Below, one piece after another: positions 1-35,422 of a stretch of 38,567 nucleotides of DNA; the stretch's first letter is position 1, and every line of letters begins with the position of its first letter. The notes beneath the pieces are model-generated. The model did no database searches. It was not told where the DNA came from and saw only the letters and a list, made by a program, of their open reading frames with translations. The stretch comes from a virus (taxonomy: Duplodnaviria > Caudoviricetes): positions 1-38,567 of IMG/VR virus record IMGVR_UViG_3300028588_000816; one strand, 5' to 3'. A program made the translations under genes and the position numbers.

Positions 1-1191
1 TCAGGGCGCCTCGGATATCTTCGCGGCGCCCTTTTTCTTTCCGTAGACCTCTTCCGCGCGGGCGCCCGCATTGTCGTCGGCGTCCGGCATCCACCGGCCA
101 TAGCGCCGGATGATCATCGACCAGTCGCTGTGCCCCATCTGCTGTGCGACCCACATCGGGTGCTCGCCAGACGACAACATCATACTCGCATACGTGTGGC
201 GAGTTTGATAAGGGTAGCGGTACCGCACCTTCGCCCGCTTGAGCGCCCATTGCCAAAGCGTTTTCCGGATCGGCTGGTCGCCCGTCCAGCGTTCCAGGGT
301 CCGCGGGTTCTGGAATACCTCCTGCCCCTTGAGGTAGGTGTGCGCTTTCTGCGCCGCCAGCGCCTCGACCGCCATCGCCAGCAGCTTCACCTCGCGCCGG
401 CCGGAATCCGTCTTCGGAACCTCGGGCCCGTCCGAATGCTGGGTTTGCGCCTTCGACACCCGCACCATGCCGCGCAGGAAATCGATGTCGTTCCAGTCGA
501 GGGCCACCAGCTCCGACGTGCGCAGGCCGGTCCAGAACGCGAACTGGATCAGGTTGCGGCCCTGCCCTTCCAGCGCCGACAGGATGGCCGACTGCTCAAC
601 GCGGTCGAATGGGTCGATCTCGTCTTCCGCCACTTGCAGCACTTTTTTCTTCTTATATGTATACCCGGACAGCGGGTTCACCTCGATCAGCTCGGCATCG
701 ACGGCGGCCTCCAAGGCGGCCCGCATCACGCTCTGGATGTTGCTCAAGGTCTTATTGCCAGCCGGGTATGCGACCAGCTTGTCGCGCATGTGCTTGCGCT
801 TGAATTCCGACAGTGTCAGCTTACCGAACCAGGGATCCAGCTTGCCCATCACGATCTTGCGGTAGCTGTCGTAGCTGCTGGACTTGCGCTCAAGCTTTTG
901 TTCGTCTAGCCACTTGTCCAGGTAGTCGCCGATGAGCGTCAATTCGCCTGGTTCCGCCTCTGCTTCGTGGAAGCGGGCCGCGATCTTCGATTCCGGGAAC
1001 GAGGCCCGGTAGTCGAAGGTGCCGGCGGCGATCGCGTGCTGGATCGCCGCGCGGTGCTGCTCAGCCCGCTTCAGGTTAGCGGGCGTGGGCTTGAGGGGGA
1101 CCCTTTCCCGGCACCGGACACCTTTATACATAAAGCTGATTTCGATACTGCTTTCCGACGCAGCCTTAACACCCCGCCCGTCTCTACCCAT
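1..1191 (-). CDS. int: Phage integrase (tyrosine recombinase with N-terminal arm-binding domain)
   Basis: 396 aa; TGLRTSEL, YQTRHTYAS, MGHSD...RRYG catalytic motifs. Confidence 0.95.
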   Translation of the reverse strand: MGRDGRGVKAASESSIEISFMYKGVRCRERVPLKPTPANLKRAEQHRAAIQHAIAAGTFDYRASFPESKIAARFHEAEAEPGELTLIGDYLDKWLDEQKLERKSSSYDSYRKIVMGKLDPWFGKLTLSEFKRKHMRDKLVAYPAGNKTLSNIQSVMRAALEAAVDAELIEVNPLSGYTYKKKKVLQVAEDEIDPFDRVEQSAILSALEGQGRNLIQFAFWTGLRTSELVALDWNDIDFLRGMVRVSKAQTQHSDGPEVPKTDSGRREVKLLAMAVEALAAQKAHTYLKGQEVFQNPRTLERWTGDQPIRKTLWQWALKRAKVRYRYPYQTRHTYASMMLSSGEHPMWVAQQMGHSDWSMIIRRYGRWMPDADDNAGARAEEVYGKKKGAAKISEAP

Positions 1192-1349
1192 TTCTCATAT
1201 CCTTCTGTACTGATCAGGATCCGCCCGTCGGGCGCCTTGATCCATATGTCGTTTACCGGCCAGATGCCGTCGCGGATCTTGGTCCGGATGGCGTCCTCGG
1301 TATAGCCGGACTCGGCCGAAAATTTCGGAATTGTCACATAGCGCAGCAT
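1071..1349 (-). CDS. xis: Excisionase
   Basis: MLRYVTIPKFSAESGYTEDAIRTKIRDGIW...APDGRILIS, winged-HTH Xis-like; overlaps the int 5' end. Confidence 0.85.
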   Translation of the reverse strand: MLRYVTIPKFSAESGYTEDAIRTKIRDGIWPVNDIWIKAPDGRILISTEGYEKWVETGGVLRLRRKAVSKSALCIKVSGAGKGSPSSPRPLT

Positions 1350-1359
1350 TCGATTTCCC

Positions 1360-1647
1360 CTAATCCATTCCCGTCGACGGCAGCTGATTGCCACCTTGCT
1401 CCAGTGTCCCTACCAGGTTCTTGTAACGCTGGATGCAGCCTTCCGCCGCCTTCAGCTTCTCCGACGTTTCGCAGTAAGCGACATACCACTCGGCGGCATT
1501 CTTGCCCTTCAGTTGGCGGTCAGCTTGCGAGCGCAGCTCAGCAATCTCGTTCATCATCGCGCGCTCGACGCACGACGGCACGTGCATCGGAAAGTCTTCT
1601 CCGGCGCCGATCCGCTCGCGCCAGGTCTTGATCGTGCTATTCGTCAT
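1360..1647 (-). CDS. Hypothetical phage protein (95 aa)
   Basis: MTNSTIKTWRERIG...; ATGA overlap with the upstream gene. Confidence 0.7.
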   Translation of the reverse strand: MTNSTIKTWRERIGAGEDFPMHVPSCVERAMMNEIAELRSQADRQLKGKNAAEWYVAYCETSEKLKAAEGCIQRYKNLVGTLEQGGNQLPSTGMD

Positions 1648-1838
1648 GTCGTTCCTTCCGCCCCTCGGGGCTTCCTTGTAAGTGCGTATTGCATCTGCAG
1701 CTTGTCCTCGGCGCGCCGGCGCAGCGCCTGCTGCAGTTCCAGATCGAGGCGCGCGATCGTCAGCTGCTCGAACAGCGCACGCGCCATCTGCTCGTCGCTG
1801 CCGTAGATGGCGCGGGCCTGTTCGAATGTCGCCGTCAT
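1644..1838 (-). CDS. Hypothetical phage protein (64 aa)
   Basis: Start and stop overlap neighbours in the operon. Confidence 0.65.
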   Translation of the reverse strand: MTATFEQARAIYGSDEQMARALFEQLTIARLDLELQQALRRRAEDKLQMQYALTRKPRGAEGTT

Positions 1839-2086
1839 CAGCCCTGGATCCTGTGCTGGCGGATACCGGTAATCCCAGGTGGTAGCTGCTCGGCCTGCTC
1901 GAGGAAGCCGCTGCCCTTTTGGCCGGTGGCCCTCGCATACTCGACCTCGACCTTCGCCGAGTTCACCATGACCTGGGACAGGTCGCCGATCATCTTCGCG
2001 CGATCGATGTCGAGCTTCCCGCTTTTGACGCCCTCGATCGTCTCGAACAGCAGATCACGCAAGTCATCGATGTTCTTCTTGGCCAT
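1838..2086 (-). CDS. Hypothetical phage protein (82 aa), of a type often found next to HNH genes
   Basis: MAKKNIDDLRDLLFETIEGVKSGKLDIDRAKMIGDLSQVMVNSAKVEVEY. Confidence 0.75.
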   Translation of the reverse strand: MAKKNIDDLRDLLFETIEGVKSGKLDIDRAKMIGDLSQVMVNSAKVEVEYARATGQKGSGFLEQAEQLPPGITGIRQHRIQG

Positions 2087-2756
2087 GTTTCATCCTCTTG
2101 TTGATTTGTCGGGTGAGCACCGCGCGCAGCTGCACCACCTGGTTAAGTTCGGGCGGCAGGTTGTGCCGCGTGTTTCGCTTCATGTTCTCGGCCAGGCTGA
2201 TGCACTCGACCCGGTCGATCGTTATTTCCTCGAGCACGTTGGTGCGCATGCCCGGCTTGAAGACCACGATGTGCTTTGCCGGCACCGGCCCATTCGCCCG
2301 GATCCAGACCAGCTCGTGCACGGCGCGCCAGCGCGCGCTGTTGTTGCCTTTTGCGTTGCTGACCTTCTGCAGCAGCACGCCGCTCTTGTCGAACTTTGTG
2401 CTGCCGATCGGCAGCGTGTTCGCCGGCGACTGGCCCGGCTTGAACTGGGTGGCGCGACAGGCTGGCTGCACACCTGCAGCACCCTTCACTCCCTTGTTCC
2501 AAGGAACGATCCCTTTTTGGAACCTGGTCGCCCCACCGCGGATCCCGTCGAGCCTGCCTGCGCAGCCGCTTGCCAGAAAGGCGTCCGTCTTCCTGATGCC
2601 CAAGCTGTTCGCCTTCCGGTACGTCGCCTCGAGCGAGTGGCCTAGCATGAATGCAACGTCTTCGGTCTTGAAGTTCGGGTACAGCGAGCGCAGCGTCTCG
2701 ACCTGGCCCTTGGTCCAGACGGCTTTCGAACGGTTGATGCCTTTCGACTTGGTCAT
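2064..2756 (-). CDS. HNH endonuclease-like protein (possibly degenerate active site)
   Basis: FQKGIVPWNKG...TQFKPG...WRAVHELVWIRANGPVPAKHIVVFKPG...ENMKRN. Confidence 0.8.
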   Translation of the reverse strand: MTKSKGINRSKAVWTKGQVETLRSLYPNFKTEDVAFMLGHSLEATYRKANSLGIRKTDAFLASGCAGRLDGIRGGATRFQKGIVPWNKGVKGAAGVQPACRATQFKPGQSPANTLPIGSTKFDKSGVLLQKVSNAKGNNSARWRAVHELVWIRANGPVPAKHIVVFKPGMRTNVLEEITIDRVECISLAENMKRNTRHNLPPELNQVVQLRAVLTRQINKRMKHGQEEHR

Positions 2757-2950
2757 GCCGCCCTCCAGGCGCACGCCGGCGGCTCGCAGCGCGCCAGCAC
2801 CTGGTCGCCCTCGCAGATCCGCATCGCCGTCTTCGCGCATCCTGCCGCGCGCAGCAACTCGGCGGCAGCGGCCTCGACCTCGCCCTGGCGCGCTTCGTCG
2901 AACACCAGCACGTTGCGCCAGGCACCAGAGTCCTTGACCTGGAGCTTCAT
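2753..2950 (-). CDS. Hypothetical protein (65 aa)
   Basis: MKLQVKDSGAWRNVLVFD...; ATGA overlaps on both sides. Confidence 0.65.
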   Translation of the reverse strand: MKLQVKDSGAWRNVLVFDEARQGEVEAAAAELLRAAGCAKTAMRICEGDQVLARCEPPACAWRAA

Positions 2951-3216
2951 GTCGCAGCCGCCAGTGCTGGTGCCGCAGGCTTGATCTCGATCTCCGAGCA
3001 GTCGATCCCGCCAGGGATCCCCGCCAGGTAGACCGTCATCCCAAGATTTCCGCCATCCTGGAACATCGTCAGCGTGTGGATAAACTGGTGCAGCCCGCGA
3101 TACAGGACCGGCCTGCAGCAATGCGCTGATTTGAGCAGCAGCATGTGGTGTCGATAGACGGCAACGTCGAATGGCTCATCCTGGGTGTCCAGCATGGGTT
3201 CGTTCATTCTGGTCAT
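2947..3216 (-). CDS. Hypothetical protein (89 aa)
   Basis: ATG overlaps the RT stop (ATGA). Confidence 0.65.
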   Translation of the reverse strand: MTRMNEPMLDTQDEPFDVAVYRHHMLLLKSAHCCRPVLYRGLHQFIHTLTMFQDGGNLGMTVYLAGIPGGIDCSEIEIKPAAPALAAAT

Positions 3217-4610
3217 GTCGTTCTCCGGTAGCTTTTGGTGAAAGTCTGGTTGACGCAATGTCCTCGGCGCAGCACCGCGCGCGCCAGCTTGGCCCGATCG
3301 GCATGGCTGCTGCTGGCCTGGCGCAGCAGGCCGAAGTAGCTGTTGGCGGTGGCGTGCACGTCGACCAGGTCAGCGGTGCGGATCCGCTCGACGGCCTGGC
3401 CGACCGTGCGCCGACGGGTTCTGGTGTGCCAGGGCTTGATCACGTGGCCGACGAAGTCGACGCCGCGCGCCACGGGCTGCAGGATCGTCTTGGCCGGGTT
3501 CAGGTGCGCGCCCAGCCGCGCCGGCAGGAAGTCGTCGATCCCGGCCAGAGCGGCATTCAGCCACTCGGGCGATTCGTGCAGCAGGATGAAGTCGTCCACG
3601 TATCGCACGTAGTGGCGCGCCCCTACTCGATGCTTCGCGAACTGGTCAAGCGCGTTGAGGTGGATGTTCGCGAAGAACTGGCTCGACAGGTTCCCGATCG
3701 GCAGGCCGAGGTGGTCGGGCTGGCTCCGCAGGCGCTTGTGCGGCGGCACCAGGTCGATCAGCCGGCGATCGCCGCGCAGCTCGAAATCCTGGCGCGGATC
3801 GTGGAACAGGATCACGCCGGCGAGCCACAGCCACCACGGCTCGGTGACGCGGGCCGCGATCTGGGCCCACAGCACCGATTTATCGATCGTCACGAAAAAG
3901 TTGGCGAGGTCGCACTTCAGGTACCAGAGCGGCCGTGCCCAGTTCTCGGACGCGCTGCGGATCTTCGCTTCCAGGCGATGCGCCGCATACAGCGTGCCGC
4001 GGCCCGGGATGCAGGCGCAGGTGTCGCTAATAAACGTGCGGTAGAAGCGCGGCGCGATGCGGTTGTACAGCAGGTGGTGCACGATCCGGTCGCGGAAGTC
4101 GGCGGCCCAGACCTCGCGCGCCCTGGGGCGCGTGACGACGAAGCAGATCGACCGGCCGGGCCGGTAGGTCCCGTCCAGCAGCTCGCCCTGCAGGCGCGCC
4201 AGCTGGCGTTCCTGGTCCTGCTCGAAGGCGGCGGCGCTGGCGGAATTGCGTTTTGTCTTGCGGCAATCGAGGTAGGCCCGCACCAGGTCCTCGAAAGAAA
4301 AATCAGCATGGTGGCGGCCGGGATAATCTGCGGACCGCGCGGGCGCGGAGCTCGGCCGACTTGTTGTTGTTGTTCTGGTTGCCGTTGTTGAAGTTCTGGT
4401 TCCAGGCATAGTCGTCGTTGGCAGCGTGCTGCGGTTATTCGTGCTATCTACATCGCCCCGCCGAAGGCCAGGGTGGCCGATCAGCGGGGAAACTGCGCCA
4501 GACCTGCCCGAACACTGCCGGGCGGTTTCTGCGATGCGCATGGCGGTGGCCTTGTGGGCCAGCGGCACGACCAGATTAAGAGTTCGCACAGTCATGGTGG
4601 CCGTGACCAT
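3213..4610 (-). CDS. DGR reverse transcriptase (start uncertain: 4610 coupled to the avd stop, ATG inside the TR at 4410, or a GTG near 4283)
   Basis: FRDRIVHH, GLPIGNLSSQFFAN (DGR-type SQ motif), YVRYVDDF, GVDFVG; no maturase or endonuclease domain. Confidence 0.95.
   Translation of the reverse strand: MVTATMTVRTLNLVVPLAHKATAMRIAETARQCSGRSGAVSPLIGHPGLRRGDVDSTNNRSTLPTTTMPGTRTSTTATRTTTTSRPSSAPARSADYPGRHHADFSFEDLVRAYLDCRKTKRNSASAAAFEQDQERQLARLQGELLDGTYRPGRSICFVVTRPRAREVWAADFRDRIVHHLLYNRIAPRFYRTFISDTCACIPGRGTLYAAHRLEAKIRSASENWARPLWYLKCDLANFFVTIDKSVLWAQIAARVTEPWWLWLAGVILFHDPRQDFELRGDRRLIDLVPPHKRLRSQPDHLGLPIGNLSSQFFANIHLNALDQFAKHRVGARHYVRYVDDFILLHESPEWLNAALAGIDDFLPARLGAHLNPAKTILQPVARGVDFVGHVIKPWHTRTRRRTVGQAVERIRTADLVDVHATANSYFGLLRQASSSHADRAKLARAVLRRGHCVNQTFTKSYRRTT
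4325..4432 (-). repeat. DGR template repeat (TR)
   Basis: In the VR frame it reads QHAANDDYAWNQNFNNGNQNNNNKSAELRARAVRR with 10 AAC codons; lies between avd and the RT core. Confidence 0.95.
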
Positions 4611-4963
4611 CACGAAGCGGGCGACGTTGCGGAGCGGCGCCATCCACTGGCCTGCTTGCCGATGCTGATGGTCAGCTCGACCGCCCGGGCGTACTGCTTG
4701 ATCGCGATCAGGCGCTTGTCGCGCGAAAGACGCAGCAGCAGCTCGGCCACCTGCAGGCGCTCGATGAGCCCTTGCAGGTGCGCTCCCTTCTCCCGCGCCG
4801 TATTGGCGCGGAAGACCAGGACCGTGATCTCGACGACTTCGTCGCGGATCTTCCCGCCGATCGATGCCTTGAAATCGCGAGGCATGTTCTTGGCAAGGTC
4901 CGTGACGACGTCGAGGAGGTCATAGGCGGCCTTGTAAATCGGCAATTGCGTGTGGAGTGCCAT
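4610..4963 (-). CDS. avd: DGR accessory variability determinant (four-helix-bundle protein)
   Basis: 117 aa basic helical protein, LPIYKAAYDL...MPRDFKASIG...LLRLSRD...IGKQASGW; immediately upstream of the TR. Confidence 0.9.
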   Translation of the reverse strand: MALHTQLPIYKAAYDLLDVVTDLAKNMPRDFKASIGGKIRDEVVEITVLVFRANTAREKGAHLQGLIERLQVAELLLRLSRDKRLIAIKQYARAVELTISIGKQASGWRRSATSPAS

Positions 4964-4980
4964 GCTGATGAAAAGCTAAA

Positions 4981-5459
4981 TTACTGAATGGTTAATCTGC
5001 GGACCGCGCGGGCGCGGAGCTCGGCCGACTTGAAGTAGTTGTACTGGTAGCCGTCGTCGAAGTCTGGCCCCAGGCATAGCCGTCGTCGGCAGCGTGCTGC
5101 TCGCTCGACCAGTACCAGCGCTTCTCGAACTGGCCCGGCAGGTTGGCGAACAGCAGTGCCTGTTCGCGCCGCGTCGGCAACTCGCCGCCGGCCTCGGCCG
5201 CGAAGACCTTAGCCCTGTCCCAGGTGACGCCGTCGACGTCGCCCGGCAGCAGGATCAGGTGGTGCGCCGGCGCGCCATCTTCGTCCAGAAGGATGCCGGC
5301 GTAGTGCTCGCCCGGCTGCAGCTGGATCTGCACCTGCTGGATGGTGACGACCCGCAGCGGCTGCGCTTTGAAGGCCGCGATCATCTCGGCCAGGTTCTGG
5401 TGCTCGACCGTGAGTTTCTGGTGTGCGGCCTCGATGGCCGCGAGCGTGGTGGGGGTCAT
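4981..5459 (-). CDS. DGR target 1, DUF1566/CLec-like protein; frameshifted within VR1 (current ORF stops at 4992, restored frame stops at 4981)
   Basis: TWDRAKVFA...GGELPTRREQALL...WYWSS followed by VR1. Confidence 0.85.
4994..5100 (-). repeat. DGR variable repeat VR1
   Basis: 107 bp; versus TR: 11 substitutions and one deletion, all at TR adenines. Confidence 0.95.
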
Positions 5460-5486
5460 ACTCGACTCCGAAAAATGGATGAAGGG

Positions 5487-6116
5487 TTAAATTACGAATC
5501 TGCGGACCGCGCGGGCGCGGAGCTCGGCCGACTCGTCGTTGCTGCCCTGGATGCCGCTGCTGAAGTCCTGGAACCAGGCACAGTAGTCGTTGGCAGCGTG
5601 CTGCGTGCTTGACCAGTACCACTCGCCGGCGAAGGCTTGCTCGCCGCCCTCGGCGAAGCCGGGCACCGAGGTCTGGGCCGGCAGGTCGCGGCTGTAGGCG
5701 ACGGTGGGCGGCACGGCCGAGGCGTTCACGCCGTTGCGGCCGTACAGGTAGTTGGCGCGCCCGGTCGGCTTCAGGTTGCGGTACAGGATCTCGAGCTCGT
5801 CCTGGCTCGGGATGTGCCAGTCGGTGTAGCCGCCGATGTCCAGGCCCTGCGCCCAGTTGGCCAGCTCGCTACCGGCCGCGGCCATGGCCATGGTGTTCGC
5901 CCGGCCGTCGCTGTAGCTGTCGGCGCCGACGACGCGCTCTTCCGAATCGAGCCAGGCGAGGTCGGTGCGTTCGCCCTCGGCTTTCGGGGCGACCACCAGG
6001 CCGTACACGACGCCGCCTAGCAGGATGCGCCCGGCAAAGAAGCCGCCGCCGATCGTGTCGCCGATATCGCCCGGCATAGTTGCGGTTGCGAGCAGGATTT
6101 GGTCTTGGTGTTCCAT
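5487..6116 (-). CDS. DGR target 2, DUF1566/CLec-like protein (209 aa; in frame with an upstream Cys-rich region starting at 6497)
   Basis: AAGGAG RBS before ATG 6116; GGGFFAG...DGRANT...GGYTDWHIPSQDELEILY...WYWSSTQ followed by VR2. Confidence 0.9.
   Translation of the reverse strand: MEHQDQILLATATMPGDIGDTIGGGFFAGRILLGGVVYGLVVAPKAEGERTDLAWLDSEERVVGADSYSDGRANTMAMAAAGSELANWAQGLDIGGYTDWHIPSQDELEILYRNLKPTGRANYLYGRNGVNASAVPPTVAYSRDLPAQTSVPGFAEGGEQAFAGEWYWSSTQHAANDYCAWFQDFSSGIQGSNDESAELRARAVRRFVI
5497..5604 (-). repeat. DGR variable repeat VR2
   Basis: 108 bp; versus TR: 12 substitutions at TR adenines and one non-A change (5585). Confidence 0.95.
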
Positions 6117-6497
6117 GGTTTCTCCTTGTTGTGGTTGGTAGGCACTGGCGTGCCCGATTTCCGAAAGCCGGAAGCGGCTTCCGCTTCGCCCGACTGGGCA
6201 ATATTCACGATGTTTTTCACCTGGGAACGCGGCGCACCCGGGGCAGCGGCCGTCCCGACCCGGGCAGGTGCCGGCATGCGGCTCGCCGGGCTCGGCGCAG
6301 CAGCCAGGGCACGCCAGGTCGACGGCCGGCAGGTGCTTGGCCAGCTGGCCGATCGCGCGCTCGGTGTCCCGGCACAGCGGGCACAGGTCCTCGTGGTGCG
6401 GTTCCATCCGCTGGTGGTCGTCCTGCAGGCGGCGCAGCAGGCTGTGCAAGGCGACCGCCGCGTGGGCGTCGAGTGGAAATTTGGTATCGCCCATCAC
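6117..6497 (-). CDS. Cys/His-rich putative zinc-binding region with no stop before target 2
   Basis: CPLC, CPGCCAEPGEPHAGTC, CPGCAAFPGEKHREYC; start overlaps the upstream stop. Confidence 0.6.
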
Positions 6498-6715
6498 CGC
6501 GCTCCCGCAGGGTCATGGGGCGCCGGCGCCACCGGGTCCGGCGCCAGCAGCTTGCGCAGCGCGACCACCATCTGGTCTTCCTGGCATGCGGCCAGCGAGC
6601 CGGCGAGGAACGCGGCGAAAGTGCGGGCGCGGAAGTTGACGCCCTCGGGCACCTCCTTCAGCGCCTCATCGGCGCAGGAAATGACCAGGTCACGGATCTG
6701 CTTGGCGGTCGTCAT
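6494..6715 (-). CDS. Hypothetical protein (73 aa)
   Basis: MTTAKQIRDLVISCADEAL...; overlapping start and stop. Confidence 0.65.
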   Translation of the reverse strand: MTTAKQIRDLVISCADEALKEVPEGVNFRARTFAAFLAGSLAACQEDQMVVALRKLLAPDPVAPAPHDPAGAR

Positions 6716-6831
6716 GGCATCACCTGCTCGAGCACGTGTTCCAGCACGAGCAGCACGCCCATGGCGGCGAACACCAGGCCCGGGTGACGATCGGTCCATT
6801 CGATGCGGTACAGCAGCAGGAAGCGCAGCAT
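6712..6831 (-). CDS. Small hydrophobic protein (39 aa), not in the ORF track
   Basis: MLRFLLLYRIEWTDRHPGLVFAAMGVLLVLEHVLEQVMP; fills the gap exactly with an ATGA overlap. Confidence 0.55.
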   Translation of the reverse strand: MLRFLLLYRIEWTDRHPGLVFAAMGVLLVLEHVLEQVMP

Positions 6832-6833
6832 GG

Positions 6834-7055
6834 TCACCACCCCCGCACCAGGTTGCGACGCGCGATCAGGTCGACCTGGCGCTTGCGTTCGTACTGCCTC
6901 ATCGATACGTTGATGCCGCGCGCGGTGATGACGTCGGCTTCACGGGCGGCGCTGCTGCGCAGCTGGCGCTCGATCATCCAGAGCGCGGCCGGCTTGGCCA
7001 GCTTGCGAACCAGGCGGCGTGCGACGCGCTTGGCTTTGATGCGGAAGGGCTTCAT
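6834..7055 (-). CDS. First gene of the left operon, Arg-rich hypothetical protein (73 aa)
   Basis: GGAG RBS; directly downstream of pL. Confidence 0.7.
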   Translation of the reverse strand: MKPFRIKAKRVARRLVRKLAKPAALWMIERQLRSSAAREADVITARGINVSMRQYERKRQVDLIARRNLVRGW

Positions 7056-7109
7056 GCAGGTCTCCAGTTCGCCGGCCAGCGGGTGCTGAGCTCGGTTGCG
7101 ATGGAGTGG

Positions 7110-7149
7110 ATCGTAGCATTGCTAGTTAATACCTGCAATAGCTTTGCTA
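7110..7149 (-). promoter_or_regulatory. pL promoter with OL operators
   Basis: Minus strand TTGCAG-17-TACGAT; palindromes TAGCATTGCTA (7114-7124) and TAGCTTTGCTA (7139-7149). Confidence 0.8.
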
Positions 7150-7213
7150 GTAGTGAATGCTATTTTTTTTGGCCGCGAGGGCGGCCGAGTGAATTTCCAA
7201 CAGCGACGAAGCT

Positions 7214-7816
7214 CTACTTCTGCTTTGGCATCTTGCTCAACATTCTCTTGTACATGCCCGCAAAGCACGCATCGAAAGCAGCGCGATCATCAGTACTCAG
7301 ACTTGCTTGAAACGCAACCACGTCATCGTACTTCGATCCATTGTAGTGAAGGGAAATCTGCATAGGCTCTTGCTTGGCAATAGCCCACAAAATTTTCGCG
7401 GCCATCGATCCATCGGCTCCACCCATGGAAAAGCCTGGATCTTCTGACTTCATATACTTCGTCGGCTTTAACGTTGCCGCGTCATCCCTCTTAGCTATCC
7501 AAAACGAGTCTGGCGCAGGAAGTCTTGGCTTCATCTTTGTGATGTCCCAGCCCGAACGCCGGTCGAACGGCACATTGTACGCACCCGCCTTCATCAGACT
7601 GAAGGTGTCGTCGGCCATAGTGATACTGAAATCGTATGCAATCGACTTCTGGCTCTCTTCCATCGACGCGACGACAATACGAACGCCGCATCTTGAAAAG
7701 CCCTCAGCGTCTCGAGTAATCAGTGGCTGGAACGATACCGAATTTGCCGCCGTGACCACCTGGCACAAAGAGATTCCCGGGGTCATCAAAACTGCCAACA
7801 AAATCAATTTTTTCAA
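7214..7816 (-). CDS. Exported protein with Sec signal peptide in the immunity region (200 aa)
   Basis: GGAGG RBS, TTG start, MKKLILLAVLMTPGISLC signal; lower GC than the phage core. Confidence 0.75.
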   Translation of the reverse strand: MKKLILLAVLMTPGISLCQVVTAANSVSFQPLITRDAEGFSRCGVRIVVASMEESQKSIAYDFSITMADDTFSLMKAGAYNVPFDRRSGWDITKMKPRLPAPDSFWIAKRDDAATLKPTKYMKSEDPGFSMGGADGSMAAKILWAIAKQEPMQISLHYNGSKYDDVVAFQASLSTDDRAAFDACFAGMYKRMLSKMPKQK

Positions 7817-7858
7817 GCACTTCCTCCAAAGGTATGGCTCTGCTATATTACCGACATA

Positions 7859-7878
7859 TACTGTATGAACATACAGTA
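7859..7878. promoter_or_regulatory. LexA (SOS) box
   Basis: TACTGTATGAACATACAGTA, near-perfect palindrome with CTGT-N8-ACAG core; overlaps a TATACT -10-like hexamer. Confidence 0.9.
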
Positions 7879-7975
7879 CTTTTGACAGGACAAGCTGTCA
7901 CCCGTTTTGAATCTGTGATATTTTTATCGGGTAAATCCGTAAAGTCGAAAGCAACGCTTCAGTAAGGAGAGCAAC

Positions 7976-8167
7976 GTGGTTAGTCAGCCTTATCATCAAA
8001 TTGACGAAGAACAATTGGTCTTGAACGCGTACAGGCAGATGAGTGATGACTGCCAACGGAACACCCTGACCGCGATGCAGGCTATGGCACGCGCGTTCCC
8101 GCGCCGTGAGGCCCCGTCGCTAAGCCTTGTCTCGCAGTTGGCTGGGAAAGACCGCTTTCGGCAGTGA
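7976..8167 (+). CDS. Small protein downstream of the SOS box, candidate antirepressor (63 aa)
   Basis: AAGGAG RBS with GTG start; EEQLVLNAYRQM resembles the repressor C-terminus; converges on and overlaps the cI 3' end. Confidence 0.65.
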   Translation: MVSQPYHQIDEEQLVLNAYRQMSDDCQRNTLTAMQAMARAFPRREAPSLSLVSQLAGKDRFRQ

Positions 8168-8596
8168 GTCGACAAACACCATGGCATGTGCTCTCTCTCC
8201 TGGTGCGCAAGCGCGGAACTTGTCTAAAAGCCTCATCTCCTCTTCCGTCACCCACTGAAGATGCTGTTCCGAGTTTTGCACCACTAGGCCGATCTTCGGC
8301 ATATCCTGAGCCACTCCAGACGCCTCCCCTATCTGCTGCGCCAGTGTCGGACTAAACTCGGTCACCGACACCCCGAGGCCGCGCGCAAACGCAACAGCTG
8401 CCTTGATGTTCAGAGGGCGGTGAGCATTCAAATATTGCCACACCATGCCTTGGCTGCCGATCCCGTACTTGGCACCGAATTCCATCTGCGAAATCAGCTT
8501 ACCTTCGGCGACGGTTTCGAGCCGAGCATCAAATAACTGACGCAGGCGCTGAGCGTCGGCAATCTGCCACTCTTCCAAAACTTTTTCTTTCTTCAT
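8120..8596 (-). CDS. cI: CI-like phage repressor lacking the S24 autopeptidase domain (start 8596 or 8608)
   Basis: Lambda-CI-like HTH: RLRQLF...SQMEFGAKYGIGSQGMVWQYLNAHRPLNIKAAVAFARGLGVSVTEFSPTLA; only ~158 aa. Confidence 0.88.
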   Translation of the reverse strand: MKKEKVLEEWQIADAQRLRQLFDARLETVAEGKLISQMEFGAKYGIGSQGMVWQYLNAHRPLNIKAAVAFARGLGVSVTEFSPTLAQQIGEASGVAQDMPKIGLVVQNSEQHLQWVTEEEMRLLDKFRACAPGERAHAMVFVDSLPKAVFPSQLRDKA

Positions 8597-8632
8597 CTGC
8601 AGGAGCATAACGTTGTAGTTACTTCTATCAAC

Positions 8633-8682
8633 GAGCATTGCTACGAATAGCATTTGCACTTTTTTACTAGCTTTGCTATTGT
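8633..8682 (+). promoter_or_regulatory. pR promoter with OR operators
   Basis: TTGCAC(8654)-17-TATTGT(8677); operators GAGCATTGCTA (8633-8643) and TAGCTTTGCTA (8668-8678). Confidence 0.8.
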
Positions 8683-8689
8683 TCGGTCT

Positions 8690-8956
8690 ATGAACCTGAC
8701 CACCTACCTTCAAACTACTGGCCTCAACAAGGCGGCGTTCGCTCGGGAGATTGGCATTTCCAGCGCTCTGCTGTACCAAGTTGAGAAGGGCATCCGGATG
8801 ATGCCCCCCAAGCGCTGCCCGGCCGTCGAAAAGGCTACGGATGGGCAGGTTAGCCGCAAGGAACTGAGGCCGCTTGACTGGTCGCAGTACTGGCCTGAAC
8901 TGGCCGTTCAACCCGAACCCCAACCCGAATCCCAACCCGAATCCCAGCCGCAGTAA
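8690..8956 (+). CDS. cro: Cro/YdaS-like HTH regulator
   Basis: KAAFAREIGISSALLYQ...RCPAVEKATDGQVSRKELRPLDW..YWPEL; divergent from cI. Confidence 0.88.
   Translation: MNLTTYLQTTGLNKAAFAREIGISSALLYQVEKGIRMMPPKRCPAVEKATDGQVSRKELRPLDWSQYWPELAVQPEPQPESQPESQPQ
8908..8943 (+). repeat. 12-bp tandem repeat x3 in the cro 3' end
   Basis: CAACCCGAA(C/T)CC x3, encoding QPEP/QPES. Confidence 0.85.
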
Positions 8957-9063
8957 CCCTGCGGCATTTTTGCGCCCCAAATATTGCGCACAGGCAGTTG
9001 CCCACAGCACCTTGCCCAGCACCACCCGAAGTCCTGAACCACGACCACTAGGAGAAACAACAC

Positions 9064-9339
9064 ATGAGCACTACCACCGACGCAACCCTGATCCGTGACC
9101 TGCCCCCATTGAAGGTCCCGGTCAACCAGGCCGAGGACAGCAAGATCCGCAAGCATTGCGCGAGGATCGGCAGCCGAGTTGCGCCGTTCATCCGCGCAGC
9201 ACTGATGGAAAAGATTGATCGCGACGGCAGCAATCGTAGCTATCCGAAGCACAAAAGCGAAGGGCCATGCCGTGGCCATTCGCAGCGCTTCCCAAACCGG
9301 GCCAGTGCCGGCGGCACCTCGCGTCGTTTGCGTCTTTAA
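9064..9339 (+). CDS. CII-position regulator, possibly ribbon-helix-helix (91 aa)
   Basis: AGGAG RBS; LKVPVNQAEDSKIRKHCARIGSRVAPFIRAALME. Confidence 0.6.
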   Translation: MSTTTDATLIRDLPPLKVPVNQAEDSKIRKHCARIGSRVAPFIRAALMEKIDRDGSNRSYPKHKSEGPCRGHSQRFPNRASAGGTSRRLRL

Positions 9340-9397
9340 GGGCGATTTCAAACCGCGCGCCCTGGGATGGGCGTGCTTCGACTAACGGAAGGTCCAC

Positions 9398-9586
9398 ATG
9401 ACACAACAGGAGAACGTAGAGACGACTCCCGACGAAACGGTCGTCCGCAGGGCCAGGATCTGGCGCGATCGCGACAAGGCTGCAATCGGCGGCTGCGACC
9501 GCGCCAAGCGCGCCGAATACCGCGCGCGCCAGCAGCTGCGCGAGGCGGTCGACCTGCTGGCCGCTGGCGACGCCAGCCAGCAATAA
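9398..9586 (+). CDS. Hypothetical protein (62 aa)
   Basis: GGAAGG RBS; followed by a hairpin. Confidence 0.65.
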   Translation: MTQQENVETTPDETVVRRARIWRDRDKAAIGGCDRAKRAEYRARQQLREAVDLLAAGDASQQ

Positions 9587-10000: not shown

Positions 10001-10486
10001 ATGAACGACAACACCACACTCGAAGGCTTCCCCGAAAAGCGCACCGCAGCCACCGACCGCTATGACGCCCTGAACCTTGCGCTGCGCACGCCGGGCCTGA
10101 TCAGCCACCACGATGTGCTGGCTGCTGCCAAGGCGTACCAGGCGCACATCGAGGGCGAGACGGCTGCGCCAGCTCCGACACCGGCCCCGATCACCGGCGG
10201 CAGCCTCTCGTCGACTGCGGGCCTGACCTTCGGCACCGCACTCACGGCGCTGAAGACCAGCCAGCGCGTGGCGCGCGCTGGCTGGAATGGCAAGGGCATG
10301 TTCGTCTACCTGGTGCCGGCCAATGCCTACCCCGCGCAGACCGGCGCTGCCAAGGCCCACTACGGCGAGGGCGCGATGGTGCCATACAACGCCTACCTCG
10401 CGCTCAAGGGCGCCGACGACACCGTGAGCACCTGGGCGCCCAGCGGCAGCGATGCGCTGGCCGAGGACTGGCTGATCGTCGAGTAA
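10001..10486 (+). CDS. DUF2829 / Tad2-like protein (putative immune-signal sponge)
   Basis: LTFGTALTALKTSQRVARAGWNGKGMFVYL...WAPSGSDALAEDW. Confidence 0.8.
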   Translation: MNDNTTLEGFPEKRTAATDRYDALNLALRTPGLISHHDVLAAAKAYQAHIEGETAAPAPTPAPITGGSLSSTAGLTFGTALTALKTSQRVARAGWNGKGMFVYLVPANAYPAQTGAAKAHYGEGAMVPYNAYLALKGADDTVSTWAPSGSDALAEDWLIVE

Positions 10487-10521
10487 CCGTCCCCTCTCCC
10501 ACTGACATCAGGAATTCAAGC

Positions 10522-10995
10522 ATGACCACCACCACGATCAAGTATTTCGCCTTCGCCCACCTGCCGGCGCCCCTGCAGCTGGTCAGCAAACCAATCGGCG
10601 AGCTGGCCCAGCAGTTCGAGCAGCAGCTTCCGGACGGGCCCGAGAAGTCCGCCGGCATGCGCAAGCTGCTGGAGGCGAAGGACTGCTTCGTGCGCGCCGC
10701 ACTGGAAGCGCCGAAGCCGGCCGAACCCACGCCGCAACCGCCGGCAGGGCGTCCCGCGCAAGGTACCGTACCTTCGGCCTATAACCGGATGCAGCCCCAC
10801 CAGGTGCGCGTGCTCGAGGAGAAGCGCGGCCTCGACGAGCAGAAGCAAAAGCTCGAGGCATTCATGGAGACGCCCACGTTCGCCCAGCTTGAAAACGACG
10901 AACAGGGCCGCTTGCATGCCCAGCTGGCGGCGATGGCGTCCTATTCGCGCATCCTGGGTGAGCGTATTGCCGGATTTGAAGGTGCCGCCCCCTGA
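10522..10995 (+). CDS. Two-domain protein: Acb2/Tad1-like helical hairpin plus crAss001_48-like helical domain
   Basis: YFAFAHLPAPLQLVSKP...PEKSAGMRKLLEAKDCFVRA, Pro-rich linker, PHQVRVLEEK...QLAAMASYSRILGERI. Confidence 0.6.
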   Translation: MTTTTIKYFAFAHLPAPLQLVSKPIGELAQQFEQQLPDGPEKSAGMRKLLEAKDCFVRAALEAPKPAEPTPQPPAGRPAQGTVPSAYNRMQPHQVRVLEEKRGLDEQKQKLEAFMETPTFAQLENDEQGRLHAQLAAMASYSRILGERIAGFEGAAP

Positions 10996-12181: not shown

Positions 12182-13563
12182 CGAACCACCACAGCGCCGA
12201 CAGCGCCGCTCCCCACTCCATCGAGGCCGAGCAATCCGTCCTGGGCGCACTGCTGCGCTTCAACGACGGGTTCGACCAGGTCGGTGACCTCGACGCGAAG
12301 CACTTCTACCGCGAGGACCACCGTGTCATCTACGCCGAAATCGTGCGCATGATCGCGCGCGGCGAGCCGGCCGACGTCATGACCGTCTGGGCCAGCCTGG
12401 AAGGGCGCGGCGGCGCCATCGACGCCGGCATCCTTCCGTACCTGCAGCGCCTGACCGAGACCACGCCCAGCGCCGTCAACATCGGCCGCTACGCCAGCAT
12501 CGTGGTCGACCGTGCACTGCGCCGAGCGACGATGTACGTCGCCGACACCATCAATGGCCTGGCCGCCAACCCGAAGGGCAAGACCGCGGACGAGGTGCTG
12601 GACGCGGTACAGTCGCTGGTCACGTCCCTGGCCGAGCGCCGGGTGCGCAACGAGCCGAAGATGTTGCGCGAGGTGCTGGCCGGCTTCATCGACGGCATCA
12701 CCAGGCGCGCCGAAGGCACTGAAAACGCCATCCCGACCGGCATCCCGGGTATCGACCGGCTGCTGACCGGCGGCGGCTTCCGCCCGGGGCAGCTGATCAT
12801 CGTCGCCGGCCGGCCATCGATGGGCAAAAGCGCGCTGACCACGGACATCGGCCTGAACATGGCGGTCGACCACGGCGTGCTCGAATTCAGCATGGAAATG
12901 GAAAGCCAGGAGATCGCCGGGCGCGCGCTGGCCAACCGCGGCCGCGTCGACCTGGGGAAGGTCATGGGCACGATTCCCGACGACGACGAGCTGGCCTGGG
13001 CCGGCGTGAGCACAGGCTGCATCAAGATCGACGCGCTGCGCTTCGGCCTCGACGAAACGCCCGCGATCTCGTTGCTCGAGCTGCGCATGAAGGCCAAGGC
13101 CTGGAAACGCAAGCACGGCCTGCACGTGATCATCGTCGACTACCTCGGTCTGATGTCGGGCGGCGAGGGAGAAAAGCGACACGAGCAGATCGGCTATTAC
13201 TCGCGCGGCCTGAAGGCGCTGGCCAAGGAACTGGGCGTGGCCGTGATCGCGCTGGCGCAGCTGAACCGCAAGGTCGAGGAACGCCCCGACCGGCGCCCGG
13301 TGCTGTCGGACCTGCGCGACTCGGGCGAGATCGAGCAGGACGCGGACATCGTGATGCTGGTGCACCGGCCCGAGATGTACGACCCGGAAAACCCGGACCT
13401 GCGCGGCTACGCCGAGATCCTGCTGCGCAAGCAGCGCGGCGGTGGCCTGGGCGATATCCCGCTCCGGTTCGATGGCCCGACGTGCTCGTTTTCGGACTGG
13501 AGCGGACGCGCCCCGGCCGCGGCGCCGGGCAAGGGCCGCAACTCGTCGAGGTTCGACGGATGA
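12178..13563 (+). CDS. dnaB: Replicative DNA helicase, DnaB family
   Basis: PHSIEAEQSVLG, AGRPSMGKS, IVDYLGL, LAQLNR, SDLRDSGEIEQDAD. Confidence 0.95.
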   Translation: MTNHHSADSAAPHSIEAEQSVLGALLRFNDGFDQVGDLDAKHFYREDHRVIYAEIVRMIARGEPADVMTVWASLEGRGGAIDAGILPYLQRLTETTPSAVNIGRYASIVVDRALRRATMYVADTINGLAANPKGKTADEVLDAVQSLVTSLAERRVRNEPKMLREVLAGFIDGITRRAEGTENAIPTGIPGIDRLLTGGGFRPGQLIIVAGRPSMGKSALTTDIGLNMAVDHGVLEFSMEMESQEIAGRALANRGRVDLGKVMGTIPDDDELAWAGVSTGCIKIDALRFGLDETPAISLLELRMKAKAWKRKHGLHVIIVDYLGLMSGGEGEKRHEQIGYYSRGLKALAKELGVAVIALAQLNRKVEERPDRRPVLSDLRDSGEIEQDADIVMLVHRPEMYDPENPDLRGYAEILLRKQRGGGLGDIPLRFDGPTCSFSDWSGRAPAAAPGKGRNSSRFDG

Positions 13564-33073: not shown

Positions 33074-33507
33074 AGCTGACGCCGCCCTCCTCCCGCGAGC
33101 CGGCCATCGATCCACGCACCGGCACGTTCTCGCGCACCTGGTTCAACTACTTCCAGCAGGTGTTCGAGCGGGTCGGCGGCGTCGCGGCGGACCTGCTCAG
33201 CCTTGCCGACTTCCAGGGCAGGAACCAGCGGCTGGATGTACCAGGCTTTCAAAAGTTCCCTGGTGGACTGACCCGCCAGTGGGGAGAGGCCGCCACCGGC
33301 GATGACGGCGCCGTGACGATCGTCTTCGACCCGCCGTTCGTGCGGAGGTGCGTCACCTTCAAGTGCGAGGAGACGGGCGTCGAGGCGGCAAGCGGCATCA
33401 CGTTTGCGCACGGCCCCCTGCAGCAGGACCGGGTCGCCGTCTATAGCTCGGGCGCCGGCACCTCGCACGCGGCGAAGCGCTTCACCTGGGAAGCCACCGG
33501 GTACTGA
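33070..33507 (+). CDS. Tail-associated protein with gp53-like C-terminal domain (145 aa)
   Basis: GFQKFPGGLTRQWG...TIVFDPPF...WEATGY. Confidence 0.7.
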   Translation: MKLTPPSSREPAIDPRTGTFSRTWFNYFQQVFERVGGVAADLLSLADFQGRNQRLDVPGFQKFPGGLTRQWGEAATGDDGAVTIVFDPPFVRRCVTFKCEETGVEAASGITFAHGPLQQDRVAVYSSGAGTSHAAKRFTWEATGY

Positions 33508-33528
33508 CAGAACAATATTTCGACATAG

Positions 33529-33553
33529 GCCGCCTACGGGCGGCTTTTCTTTT
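33529..33553 (+). terminator. Intrinsic terminator-like hairpin
   Basis: GCCGCC-TACG-GGCGGC followed by TTTTCTTTT. Confidence 0.7.
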
Positions 33554-33562
33554 GGAGCTTGC

Positions 33563-35422
33563 ATGCTGAGCGTAATGCCAACTGGCAAACAGCAATACAC
33601 GAATGATGCCGGCGTGCCGCTGGCCGGTGGTTTCGTCTATACCTTCGAGACCGGGACCACCACCCCGAAGGCAACGTACCAGGATGCGGCCGGCACCGTC
33701 GAGAACGCGAATCCCATCGTTCTGGACGCCCGGGGCGAAGCGCTCATCTACTGGGATGGCAGCTATGCCGTGAAGGTGACCGACACGAACGGCAAGATGA
33801 TCTACACGATCCCGAGTTACCAGGCGCCGCTGATGATCGCGGACCTCGAAGCCGACGATGGCGCCGAGCTGGTGAACGGCACCTGGTTCGAAGGCGCGAA
33901 GGCGCGCCTTTCCGCTCTCGGGACCCTGCTTGGGGCATCGCTCATTGGCTTTATCGCCGCCGGCGCCGGCGCCATTATCCGCAGCGTCGAATCGAAACTT
34001 CGCGAGCGGCCCAGCGTGCTGGACTATGGCGCCAAGGGTGACGGCGTCAAGGACGACTCGGATGCCATCCTGAAGGCGATCGCCGCGCGCAAAGGCAAGC
34101 GCCTGGAGTTCCCGGCGGGCACCTACCGGGTCACGAAGCCGCTGCTGCTGGATACCGGCAACACGGAATGGCTGTTCGAGCAGGGCGCGGCCCTCGACTT
34201 CCACCTCACCGAATCGAGCGCATACCCGATCACGTGTTCGCCGGGCGACTACGGCCCGTTCACCATCGACGGGCTGACGCTCGACGCGCATTATGCCGGC
34301 GCCGGCGCCCTCAAGATCACGAAGGGCGCGCCAAAGCTGCGAAACATCACCGTCAACGAGTCGGTTTCGGATTCGTTTTTCTTCGAGCTGGACGCCGCGC
34401 GGTACGACTGGGTCGAGAACTTGGTGATGGAGAACTGCCTCGCAAACGGTTCGGGTAACTGCCTGATTCATGTGTACATGCGGGGCATCTGGAACGGCAC
34501 GCCGTTTTTCAACGAAAGCTTCATCAGCCAGCTGGAGGCGCGCGGCCTGGGCACCAAAGTGGCCGGCGCAAACGCGATCCGCTTCACCTTCGACGGGACC
34601 ACGATTGCACCGGTGACTTCCTTCACCCTGCTGCAGGCGAACTTCGACGCCAAGGTATCTGGTGCCGTAGGCCAGGTGTCGCACGCGATCTATGCGAAGT
34701 CGATCAACGGTGGCAAGGGCATGCTCGAATCGTTCTTCGTCAAAGGTGGCGGATGGGAGAGCACTGGCGGCGTGGCCCAGGCCGGCTTGAAGAACATCGA
34801 GTTGGACGATGGCGTCACGATCACGAACAGCAACATGTTCGGCATCGTGAACTACAACTGGTGCTACGGCCCGGGCGACCGCTACACGAAGGAAGCTTCG
34901 AACTACTACGCCGACGCGTTCGGCGCGTACTACCCGCTCGGCCTGACGAAGCCCGACGGGTCCGCGTTGAAAGGCCTGGGCGGCTTCATCGCCGGTTTTT
35001 CGAACGCTCCCACAGCCTACCGCTACCGTGACTTCCTAGTGCAGGCCGGCCCGAAAAACATCGACATCCCGTTCATCCTGATGCCGGACAACAATATCCC
35101 GGCGCCGATCTACGTCTCGATCTTCCACAAGGCCTATCCGGACAGCCTGGGGACCTACGGCGAGGGCTTCTACATGGTGACGCCGAGCCGCACGGCCGCC
35201 AATTTCGTGCAGTGGGCGGTCAAGTCCTTCGGGTCGGGCAATGCGACCTATTCGTTCGACCCGAATGCGGTGACGTTCTCGATTCCCGAAAACGGCGTGC
35301 TGCGCGTCACGATCCCCGGCGGCGCCAATGTCGGCACCAGCGGGGCAAACACGGCCTTCGACATCTCGGCCAGCCGCATGCAGGTCGACCTGCCGGGCAT
35401 TTTCCCGGCGCTGCCAATCTAA
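33563..35422 (+). CDS. Tailspike (head-binding N-terminus plus beta-helix depolymerase)
   Basis: GVPLAGGFVYTFETGTTTPKATYQD...NPIVLDARGEA; VLDYGAKGDGVKDDSDAILKAI...FPAGTY. Confidence 0.88.
   Translation: MLSVMPTGKQQYTNDAGVPLAGGFVYTFETGTTTPKATYQDAAGTVENANPIVLDARGEALIYWDGSYAVKVTDTNGKMIYTIPSYQAPLMIADLEADDGAELVNGTWFEGAKARLSALGTLLGASLIGFIAAGAGAIIRSVESKLRERPSVLDYGAKGDGVKDDSDAILKAIAARKGKRLEFPAGTYRVTKPLLLDTGNTEWLFEQGAALDFHLTESSAYPITCSPGDYGPFTIDGLTLDAHYAGAGALKITKGAPKLRNITVNESVSDSFFFELDAARYDWVENLVMENCLANGSGNCLIHVYMRGIWNGTPFFNESFISQLEARGLGTKVAGANAIRFTFDGTTIAPVTSFTLLQANFDAKVSGAVGQVSHAIYAKSINGGKGMLESFFVKGGGWESTGGVAQAGLKNIELDDGVTITNSNMFGIVNYNWCYGPGDRYTKEASNYYADAFGAYYPLGLTKPDGSALKGLGGFIAGFSNAPTAYRYRDFLVQAGPKNIDIPFILMPDNNIPAPIYVSIFHKAYPDSLGTYGEGFYMVTPSRTAANFVQWAVKSFGSGNATYSFDPNAVTFSIPENGVLRVTIPGGANVGTSGANTAFDISASRMQVDLPGIFPALPI

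Follow-up and report, generated by a model that had tools for sequence, protein, structure and literature searches.

A diversity-generating retroelement with two likely cytoplasmic targets of predicted lectin fold in the early region of a temperate phage

The viral record IMGVR_UViG_3300028588_000816 was analyzed over its whole length of 38,567 nucleotides (hereafter the window), and it carries a diversity-generating retroelement (DGR) in which one template repeat (TR) serves two target genes that each end in a variable repeat (VR). Annotation with Pfam and PHROG identifies the 38.6-kb window as the genome of a temperate phage, with O/DnaB replication genes, terminase, portal and capsid genes, P22-like closure and ejection genes, a tailspike gene and lysis genes. 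The window is probably an excised prophage, since its proteins also occur on a recorded 63.9-kb contig. The closest named matches of the second target protein, target2, are from Massilia, and from these we infer a Massilia-related host. On the minus strand the cassette runs in the order target2, target1, avd, an Rfam RT-15 RNA, the TR and the reverse transcriptase (RT) gene:

3213..4316, minus strand: conserved part of the DGR RT (Pfam RVT_1, 9e-15; phrog_1423, 6e-115), true start uncertain
4325..4432, minus strand: TR of 108 bp, with 32 A and 10 AAC codons
4432..4626, minus strand: Rfam RT-15 RNA between avd and the TR (RF03018, 182.7 bits against a gathering score of 82, full model)
4610..4963, minus strand: accessory protein Avd, 117 aa (Pfam bAvd, 46.9 bits against a cutoff of 40; phrog_3206)
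4992..5459, minus strand: target1, an N-terminal helix plus a C-type-lectin domain, the allele frameshifted from residue 133
4994..5100, minus strand: VR1, with 11 adenine substitutions and a 1-nt deletion at a TR adenine
5487..6116, minus strand: target2, an intact 209-aa Lcl_C/DUF1566 C-type-lectin protein (PF07603, 53 bits against a cutoff of 34.9)
5497..5604, minus strand: VR2, with 12 adenine substitutions and one G>T

All 12 differences between VR1 and the TR lie at TR adenines (11 substitutions and one deleted base), as do 12 of the 13 in VR2, and the chance of such a bias is about 8e-8 and about 9e-7, respectively. The counts of differences, the RT, Avd and the 108-bp TR agree with the initial annotation of this DNA. 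Four positions are altered in both VRs and never to the same base; together with the adenine-only allele differences described below, this supports the earlier proposal that the two VRs arose by independent retrohoming from one TR. In established DGRs, the RT and Avd copy the TR RNA with errors at adenines, and the copy replaces the VR. The 10 AAC codons alone would allow about 10^12 protein variants per target. The RT contains the motifs GLPIGNLSSQ and YVDD, and in the PDB it is closest to the 328-aa RT of entries 8ub7-8ube (5e-38), which we take to be the BPP-1 enzyme. Avd also matches the NCBIfam Avd model at 53.9 bits, under that model's cutoff of 80, and both the RT and avd reading frames are open. 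A catalytic-motif RT, adenine-biased TR/VR pairs, Avd and a C-terminal VR on a predicted C-type-lectin fold identify the locus as a genuine DGR by four tested features, while RT-dependent retrohoming is indicated indirectly, by adenine-only allele differences between near-identical phages. An adenine-masked scan of the whole window returned no other VR (best other full-length match 45/76, best other 3'-part 23/36), and thus none in the tailspike or other virion genes, as had been claimed. No hairpin was found directly after VR1 or VR2.

Relatives were gathered in two sets. The viral set is the best 80 of 381 viral stretches that encode an RT relative (L001–L080), and the genome set derives from the best 80 of 181 genome stretches that encode a target2 relative, giving 78 loci of which two look duplicate. 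Viral loci carry no VR in 2 cases, one in 12, two in 41 and three in 25, so that 66 of 80 have two or three. Among the 78 genome loci, the RT is present in 62 and a TR/VR set in 61, with one VR in 2 loci, two in 35, three in 22 and four in 2 (59 of 78 with two to four); 17 target2 loci lack a TR/VR pair, some of them on short contigs. Most hosts belong to the Betaproteobacteria (Massilia, Janthinobacterium, Duganella, Cupriavidus, Ralstonia, Rhodocyclaceae) or to Pseudomonas, and eleven isolated-phage records, of which Magia, Cruim01 and Haboob were examined, encode RTs that are 60–68% identical. By these counts the two-target architecture of the window is one of many in a widespread family. 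Adenines account for 2047 of the 2096 substitutions counted over 162 distinct pairs, a partly circular figure since detection needed a 70% adenine bias. Within the TR/VR pairs of L001–L080, the first position of AAC is changed in 749 of 1064 cases, and adenines before G are hardly ever changed (CAG, 3/297; GAG, 0/56; second position of AAG, 3/142), a rarity that may reflect either a context rule of the RT or selection. Amino-acid use within the VRs varies from site to site; this VR-internal signal was left unused, because sequence-context bias and relatedness are inseparable from selection.

The deletion in VR1 had been recorded correctly at a TR adenine; its frameshift of target1 had been overlooked. 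The protein is out of frame from residue 133, which affects the last 23 residues and removes the final lectin strands, leaving target2 as the sole intact target in the window assembly. An assembly error was considered and rejected, as identical letters are present in contigs of sequencing runs X1 (depth 79) and X6 (depth 8), both from 2019 leaf litter, X1 possibly being the source sample. Contigs from two further studies, P2 (runs X2, X3 and X5) and P4 (run X7), have flanks only 1–3 bases per 450–700 off the window. Aligned to VR1, their alleles differ at TR adenines in 11/11 and 7/7 of the listed interior differences, each contig having one further difference near its end, and they are in frame, with a base at the deleted position. 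These alleles may be of VR1 or VR2, since both VRs appear to share the 5' 30 bases there, and contigs lose rare variants. Because a near-identical phage holds different, in-frame, adenine-only alleles, the DGR is judged to have been recently active; an inactive relic was rejected on the same alleles and on the open RT and avd frames.

Both targets are predicted to adopt a C-type-lectin fold. The target2 model (predicted local distance difference test score, pLDDT, 93.7) best matches the C-terminal domain (CTD) of Legionella Lcl (8q4e; Z 12.3, root-mean-square deviation (rmsd) 3.9, 126 aligned). The target1 fold was modelled on the intact orthologue of locus L001 (77% identical over 132 aa; pLDDT 92.7), which consists of a 26-residue helix and a lectin head and resembles the Bd2740 CTD (Z 13.7, rmsd 2.2, 102 aligned) as well as the Lcl CTD (Z 12.7). 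A heptad pattern in the helix points to a coiled coil; in L001 and the window this helix exceeds that of most relatives by 7 residues. The window's target1 allele has no PF07603 match, and its profile aligns as homologous with that of target2 along the entire lectin domain (HHalign probability 99.9, 118 columns). This homology corrects the earlier description of the N-termini as dissimilar; the two proteins differ by the N-terminal helix of target1 and two insertions in target2. A quick tree of 169 targets places target2 in a 61-row group that excludes target1 with a support of 100 (SH-like approximate likelihood-ratio test), and by rough typing a long and a short target type are both present in 103 of the 129 loci with several targets. 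On this tree the two targets are old paralogues. In loci L012–L014 (about 6700–7336), a single target combines a target2-type body with a target1-type C-terminal end, which suggests recombination between two VRs.

Outside the VRs, the ratio of nonsynonymous to synonymous substitution rates (dN/dS) is 0.21–0.65 in 8 of 8 comparisons, indicating that both targets are under purifying selection. These data bear on a reading of the cassette as a passenger, largely selfish or neutral, in a plastic stretch of the genome, with its variation unselected. Consistent with such a passenger, VRs with frameshifts are still found (6 of 300 distinct TR/VR pairs are frameshifted and four carry in-frame 3-nt insertions; 162 sequences examined) and reach the depth of 79 seen in run X1, and the 17 target2 loci without a TR/VR pair fit as well. 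We nevertheless regard it as very improbable, given the purifying selection on both targets and the age and co-occurrence of the long and short lineages; moreover, DGRs are not known to have a self-spreading mechanism.

A simple pattern test found no lipobox in any of 171 targets. In a crude hydropathy test, 17 of the 171 exceed 1.6 and one exceeds 1.9; the target2 peak of 1.79 corresponds to a beta-hairpin in the predicted model. By these crude hydropathy and lipobox tests, the earlier view that the targets are cytoplasmic is likely correct. The targets share no conserved cysteine. NCBIfam gave no informative target match, ESM Atlas matches were only phage or prophage Lcl_C or hypothetical clusters plus surface proteins, and no family match to known phage anti-defence proteins was obtained from Pfam, PHROG or NCBIfam.

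The position of the cassette in the phage genome is defined by the following features, which include an open reading frame (ORF) adjoining target2:

1..1349, minus strand: integrase and excisionase, at the downstream end of the same-strand gene run (Pfam, PHROG)
6117..6494, minus strand: Cys/His-rich zinc-finger-like ORF, in frame with target2 and with no intervening stop
8120..9025, minus strand: repressor-like gene upstream of the gene run (phrog_4, 2.8e-5, a weak match; start uncertain)
33404..35422, plus strand: tailspike-like, likely receptor-binding protein without a VR (Pfam pectate-lyase-like, PHROG tail spike)

This arrangement is conserved. A cI/cro/cII gene upstream or int/xis downstream is found in 57 of the 80 viral loci, many of them on short contigs, with both in 30 and the reverse order in none; in the bacterial-genome set the figure is 60 of 78. 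No head or tail gene occurs among 85 hand-picked representatives of neighbor families (families in at least 3 loci), which include one holin-like and one endolysin protein. We further scanned 71 of 97 remaining long ORFs, leaving aside duplicates and ORFs that seemed to be antisense overlaps. Every one of the 7 tail hits is encoded on the opposite strand and past the integrase; the only same-strand virion match is a terminase in the Mu-like locus L053. There, the cassette follows transposase, B and gam and precedes the late activator, a slot that corresponds to the semi-essential early region of Mu. Lar-like, methyltransferase, RecE/RecT and gam genes are among the neighbors of the cassette, and early regions of this kind are known to hold counter-defence genes. 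The strongest evidence that the targets would have an early, non-virion role is that the same slot is used in two unrelated phage plans, lambdoid and Mu-like. The survey of relatives, with its conserved repressor–integrase or post-gam slot, supports well both the early-operon placement and the earlier statement that the diversified proteins are not the receptor-binding protein.

Alternatively, the targets may be extracellular, as a loosely attached virion decoration, auxiliary adhesins or lectins released at lysis. The fold matches to adhesin and fibre tips speak for this, as do the heptad-patterned target1 helix with its 7-residue insertion relative to most relatives and the fact that most characterized phage DGR targets are tail proteins. 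Roux et al., in the available part of their paper, also allow that proteins of target cluster PC_00009 are unrecognized structural proteins (PMC8144416). We consider an extracellular role improbable, however. None of 80 loci showed a tail gene next to the cassette, and the same targets recur in the window, a P22-like head/tailspike phage, in the myophage Magia and in a Mu-like phage, without any virion anchor domain in common.

The usual reading of phage DGRs is that they serve to switch receptors. Like the BPP-1 DGR (mtd-avd-TR-brt), the window cassette belongs to a temperate phage and comprises an RT, Avd, a TR and a C-terminal VR on a C-type-lectin fold with adenine-specific change; Mtd (1yu0) matches the target1 orthologue and target2 at Z 8.3 and 5.6. 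Whereas BPP-1 diversifies one tail-fibre protein, the window DGR and most of its relatives have two or more short, stand-alone targets of the Lcl/DUF1566 subtype in the early region, and the RT-15 RNA of the window lies upstream of the TR, whereas BPP-1 has an RT-10 motif between TR and RT, according to the accessible part of PMC5737381. With no VR in virion genes and the targets in the early region, the window DGR is, as judged from its layout, not a tropism switch of the BPP-1 type. Relatives are found in the cultured phages Magia (Burkholderia), Cruim01 and Haboob (Pseudomonas), whose RTs are 62–68% identical to that of the window and which share the order targets-avd-TR-RT between repressor and integrase, with 3, 3 and 2 VRs, respectively. 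The DGR of Magia has been annotated with short target genes 47 and 57 and proposed to serve adaptation or host range, without discussion of an early position or an intracellular role (PMC7883833). In Magia (L081, 4501–4881 and 10903–11367), gene 46, which lies beside avd, also carries a VR; it is annotated as hypothetical and is not one of the two published targets. Term searches found no DGR terms in the Medea1, Cruim01 and PseuP phage papers and no occurrence of "mass spectrometry" in those on Medea1 and PseuP.

That DUF1566-target DGRs are known, as the initial annotation had said, is borne out by Wu et al. (PMC5758913): in "category d"/CLec2 DGRs about half of the targets consist of one short domain, and more than one target is present in about 15% of DGRs. 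The window shares the DUF1566/Lcl_C target with this class, as evidenced by the PF07603 score of target2 above its cutoff. DGRs with 2–4 VRs have been described in Ralstonia, Burkholderia and Collimonas (Schillinger et al., PMC3521204), and in the accessible text of these category d and multi-VR papers the cassettes are not placed in phage early operons. Legionella LdtA is a surface lipoprotein, whereas the pattern test found no lipobox in targets of the window family. The clade 3 DGRs of Roux et al. 2021, with target cluster PC_00009, are proteobacterial, often prophage-borne and "non-structural/unknown"; the window is likened to them by the supplement description only, and the available part of that source states no genomic position or function (PMC8144416). 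As far as its available text goes, the Thiohalocapsa PB-PSB1 preprint describes clade 5 DGRs with predicted cytoplasmic CLec variable domains and often two targets; those are cellular and tied to STAND/MoxR/TIR/peptidase effectors, whereas the window cassette is phage-borne (10.1101/2023.09.22.558884). No linked effector or NTPase module was recognized in the 85 neighbor families (PHROGs) or in 19 proteins (PADLOC), many neighbors being without annotation. DGR-based immunity of cells has been proposed by Belalov et al. (PMC10053308) and in the PB-PSB1 preprint, as far as the accessible parts of both go, and two further sources, PMC11661182 and 10.1101/2024.10.15.618418, add nothing on this DGR class in the parts available. 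Multi-target DUF1566 DGRs and "non-structural" phage targets are thus already in print; we found no published account of an early-operon placement or an intracellular function of phage DGR targets, with subscription journals outside our coverage.

Taken together, an intracellular role of some kind appears rather probable. Of the two forms it could take, we tentatively favor, at somewhat below even confidence, that the targets are variable binders, made early and acting in the cytoplasm, which serve counter-defence or host takeover. The cassette would be co-transcribed from an early leftward promoter; a promoter and terminator scan over 1–9400 gave counts at chance level (1 promoter against 2.0 expected). 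Progeny would thereby differ in early proteins rather than in the tailspike, and the target proteins would be located in the cytoplasm, likely made early after infection or induction. There they would likely act by binding to, and thereby blocking, host proteins that change, defence factors among them, and selection would favor variants able to neutralize whatever host factor is limiting for growth. A slip like the target1 frameshift would be tolerated and overwritten by a later round of retrohoming.

Several observations weigh against such binders. A protein made after phage entry must act quickly enough to matter. The nearest solved folds belong to the tips of surface adhesins or fibres (Lcl, Bd2740 and a Bacteroides fimbrial protein), collectin-type adhesins resemble the helix and lectin head of target1, and target2 is itself among the 17 targets above a hydropathy of 1.6. 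PADLOC returned no match for target1 or target2, and no recognized defence island lies beside the targets. Target1 is broken in the window, and 6 of 300 distinct VRs are broken across the sequences examined, which implies that single targets are dispensable. Finally, the helix-turn-helix (HTH) fusions of the family are singletons with degenerate VR-like ends. They came from a search for longer target forms, which yielded 21 proteins among 7998 scored, two of them with HTH_3 fusions (P0137 and P0138); in both, a target1-like lectin domain is joined to an XRE-type HTH, and they are possible sensor-regulators. The homologous domain is fused to DUF551 in P0028, and the existence of HTH_3 and DUF551 fusions in itself counts in favor of the early cytoplasmic binders; a peptidyl-prolyl isomerase (PPIase) fusion, P0135, was set aside as a likely chimera.

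The other intracellular form is that the cytoplasmic targets recognize proteins of superinfecting or co-resident phages, acting in exclusion, anti-repression or lysis–lysogeny decisions as a prophage-borne adaptive immunity. The same evidence of position and location applies to it, and the HTH fusions suggest sensor-regulator use. In Magia, a third VR lies in the gene directly after the repressor, and a terminator is annotated before the target pair. Cytoplasmic DGR sensors have been proposed for multicellular bacteria in the available part of the PB-PSB1 preprint (10.1101/2023.09.22.558884). We think this form unlikely, as no effector (nuclease, TIR, peptidase or ATPase) accompanies the cassette among the 85 families scanned, and as the genes are co-oriented with an operon that in lambdoid phages is normally repressed in lysogens.

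Returning to the host-factor binders, a wider proposition, possible at somewhat less than even odds, is that a widespread lineage of proteobacterial temperate phages maintains an intracellular antibody-like repertoire. In it, one template would supply 2–4 hypermutated, early-made binders of lectin fold whose adaptation is directed at rival phages or at immune proteins of the host, and a long and a short binder might pair in a complex with combinatorial specificity. Such a repertoire would constitute adaptive counter-immunity in phages, and if the targets bind defence or rival-phage proteins, phages would have an adaptive means of acting pre-emptively in the arms race inside the cell. Whichever form applies, a large family, from Massilia and Cupriavidus to Pseudomonas prophages, appears to hypermutate small non-tail proteins of the early region in unrelated phage types. 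With the cassette present in cultured phages and in lysogens, among them Massilia varians CCUG 35299 with prophage L085, the function of the "non-structural" class of DGR targets is directly testable, and the scaffolds of 120–200 aa without conserved cysteines are natural candidates for intracellular binder libraries.

The RT-15 RNA is likely the 5' part of the DGR RNA. RT RNA motifs may serve DGRs according to PMC5737381, the available main text of which does not mention RT-15 by name. The RT frame is open up to 4643, and the nearest in-frame ATGs are at 4409, inside the TR, and 4541, inside the RT-15 RNA; none lies between the TR and the first conserved RT motif. The frame is open for at least 60 codons through the TR in 67 of 79 loci, and only 6 of 79 have an in-frame ATG 6–22 codons upstream of the first RT motif. 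Where the TR is displaced from the RT (L024, L025 and L069), a local ATG is present. The RT may therefore start inside the RT-15 RNA, at ATG 4541, and read through the TR, which would couple translation to the template RNA; base composition alone may also hold the frame open.

Target2 has a strong ribosome-binding site (Shine-Dalgarno, SD), and its start is conserved in the alignment; read together with the ORF at 6117–6494, it could give a long form of 335 aa. This ORF contains two CPGC...H...CP motifs, is also fused to target2 in L001 and is a separate gene in L003. Its linker to target2 is conserved at the DNA level, with a dN/dS of about 0.9 and a low dS. Three hairpins form in this linker (z -2.5), and by eye they are not conserved beyond L001.

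Elsewhere in the window, a Tad2-like gene (PF11195, 6e-22) and a crAss001_48-like gene (PF21825) adjoin at 10001–10995 on the plus strand in the right early operon, and this pair gives the phage anti-defence candidates of a conventional kind. Next after dnaB comes a second tyrosine-recombinase gene (13482–14615, plus strand), and a sialate O-acetylesterase-like gene (PF03629; 36860–38371, minus strand) lies opposite the lysis genes as a possible surface-modifying moron.

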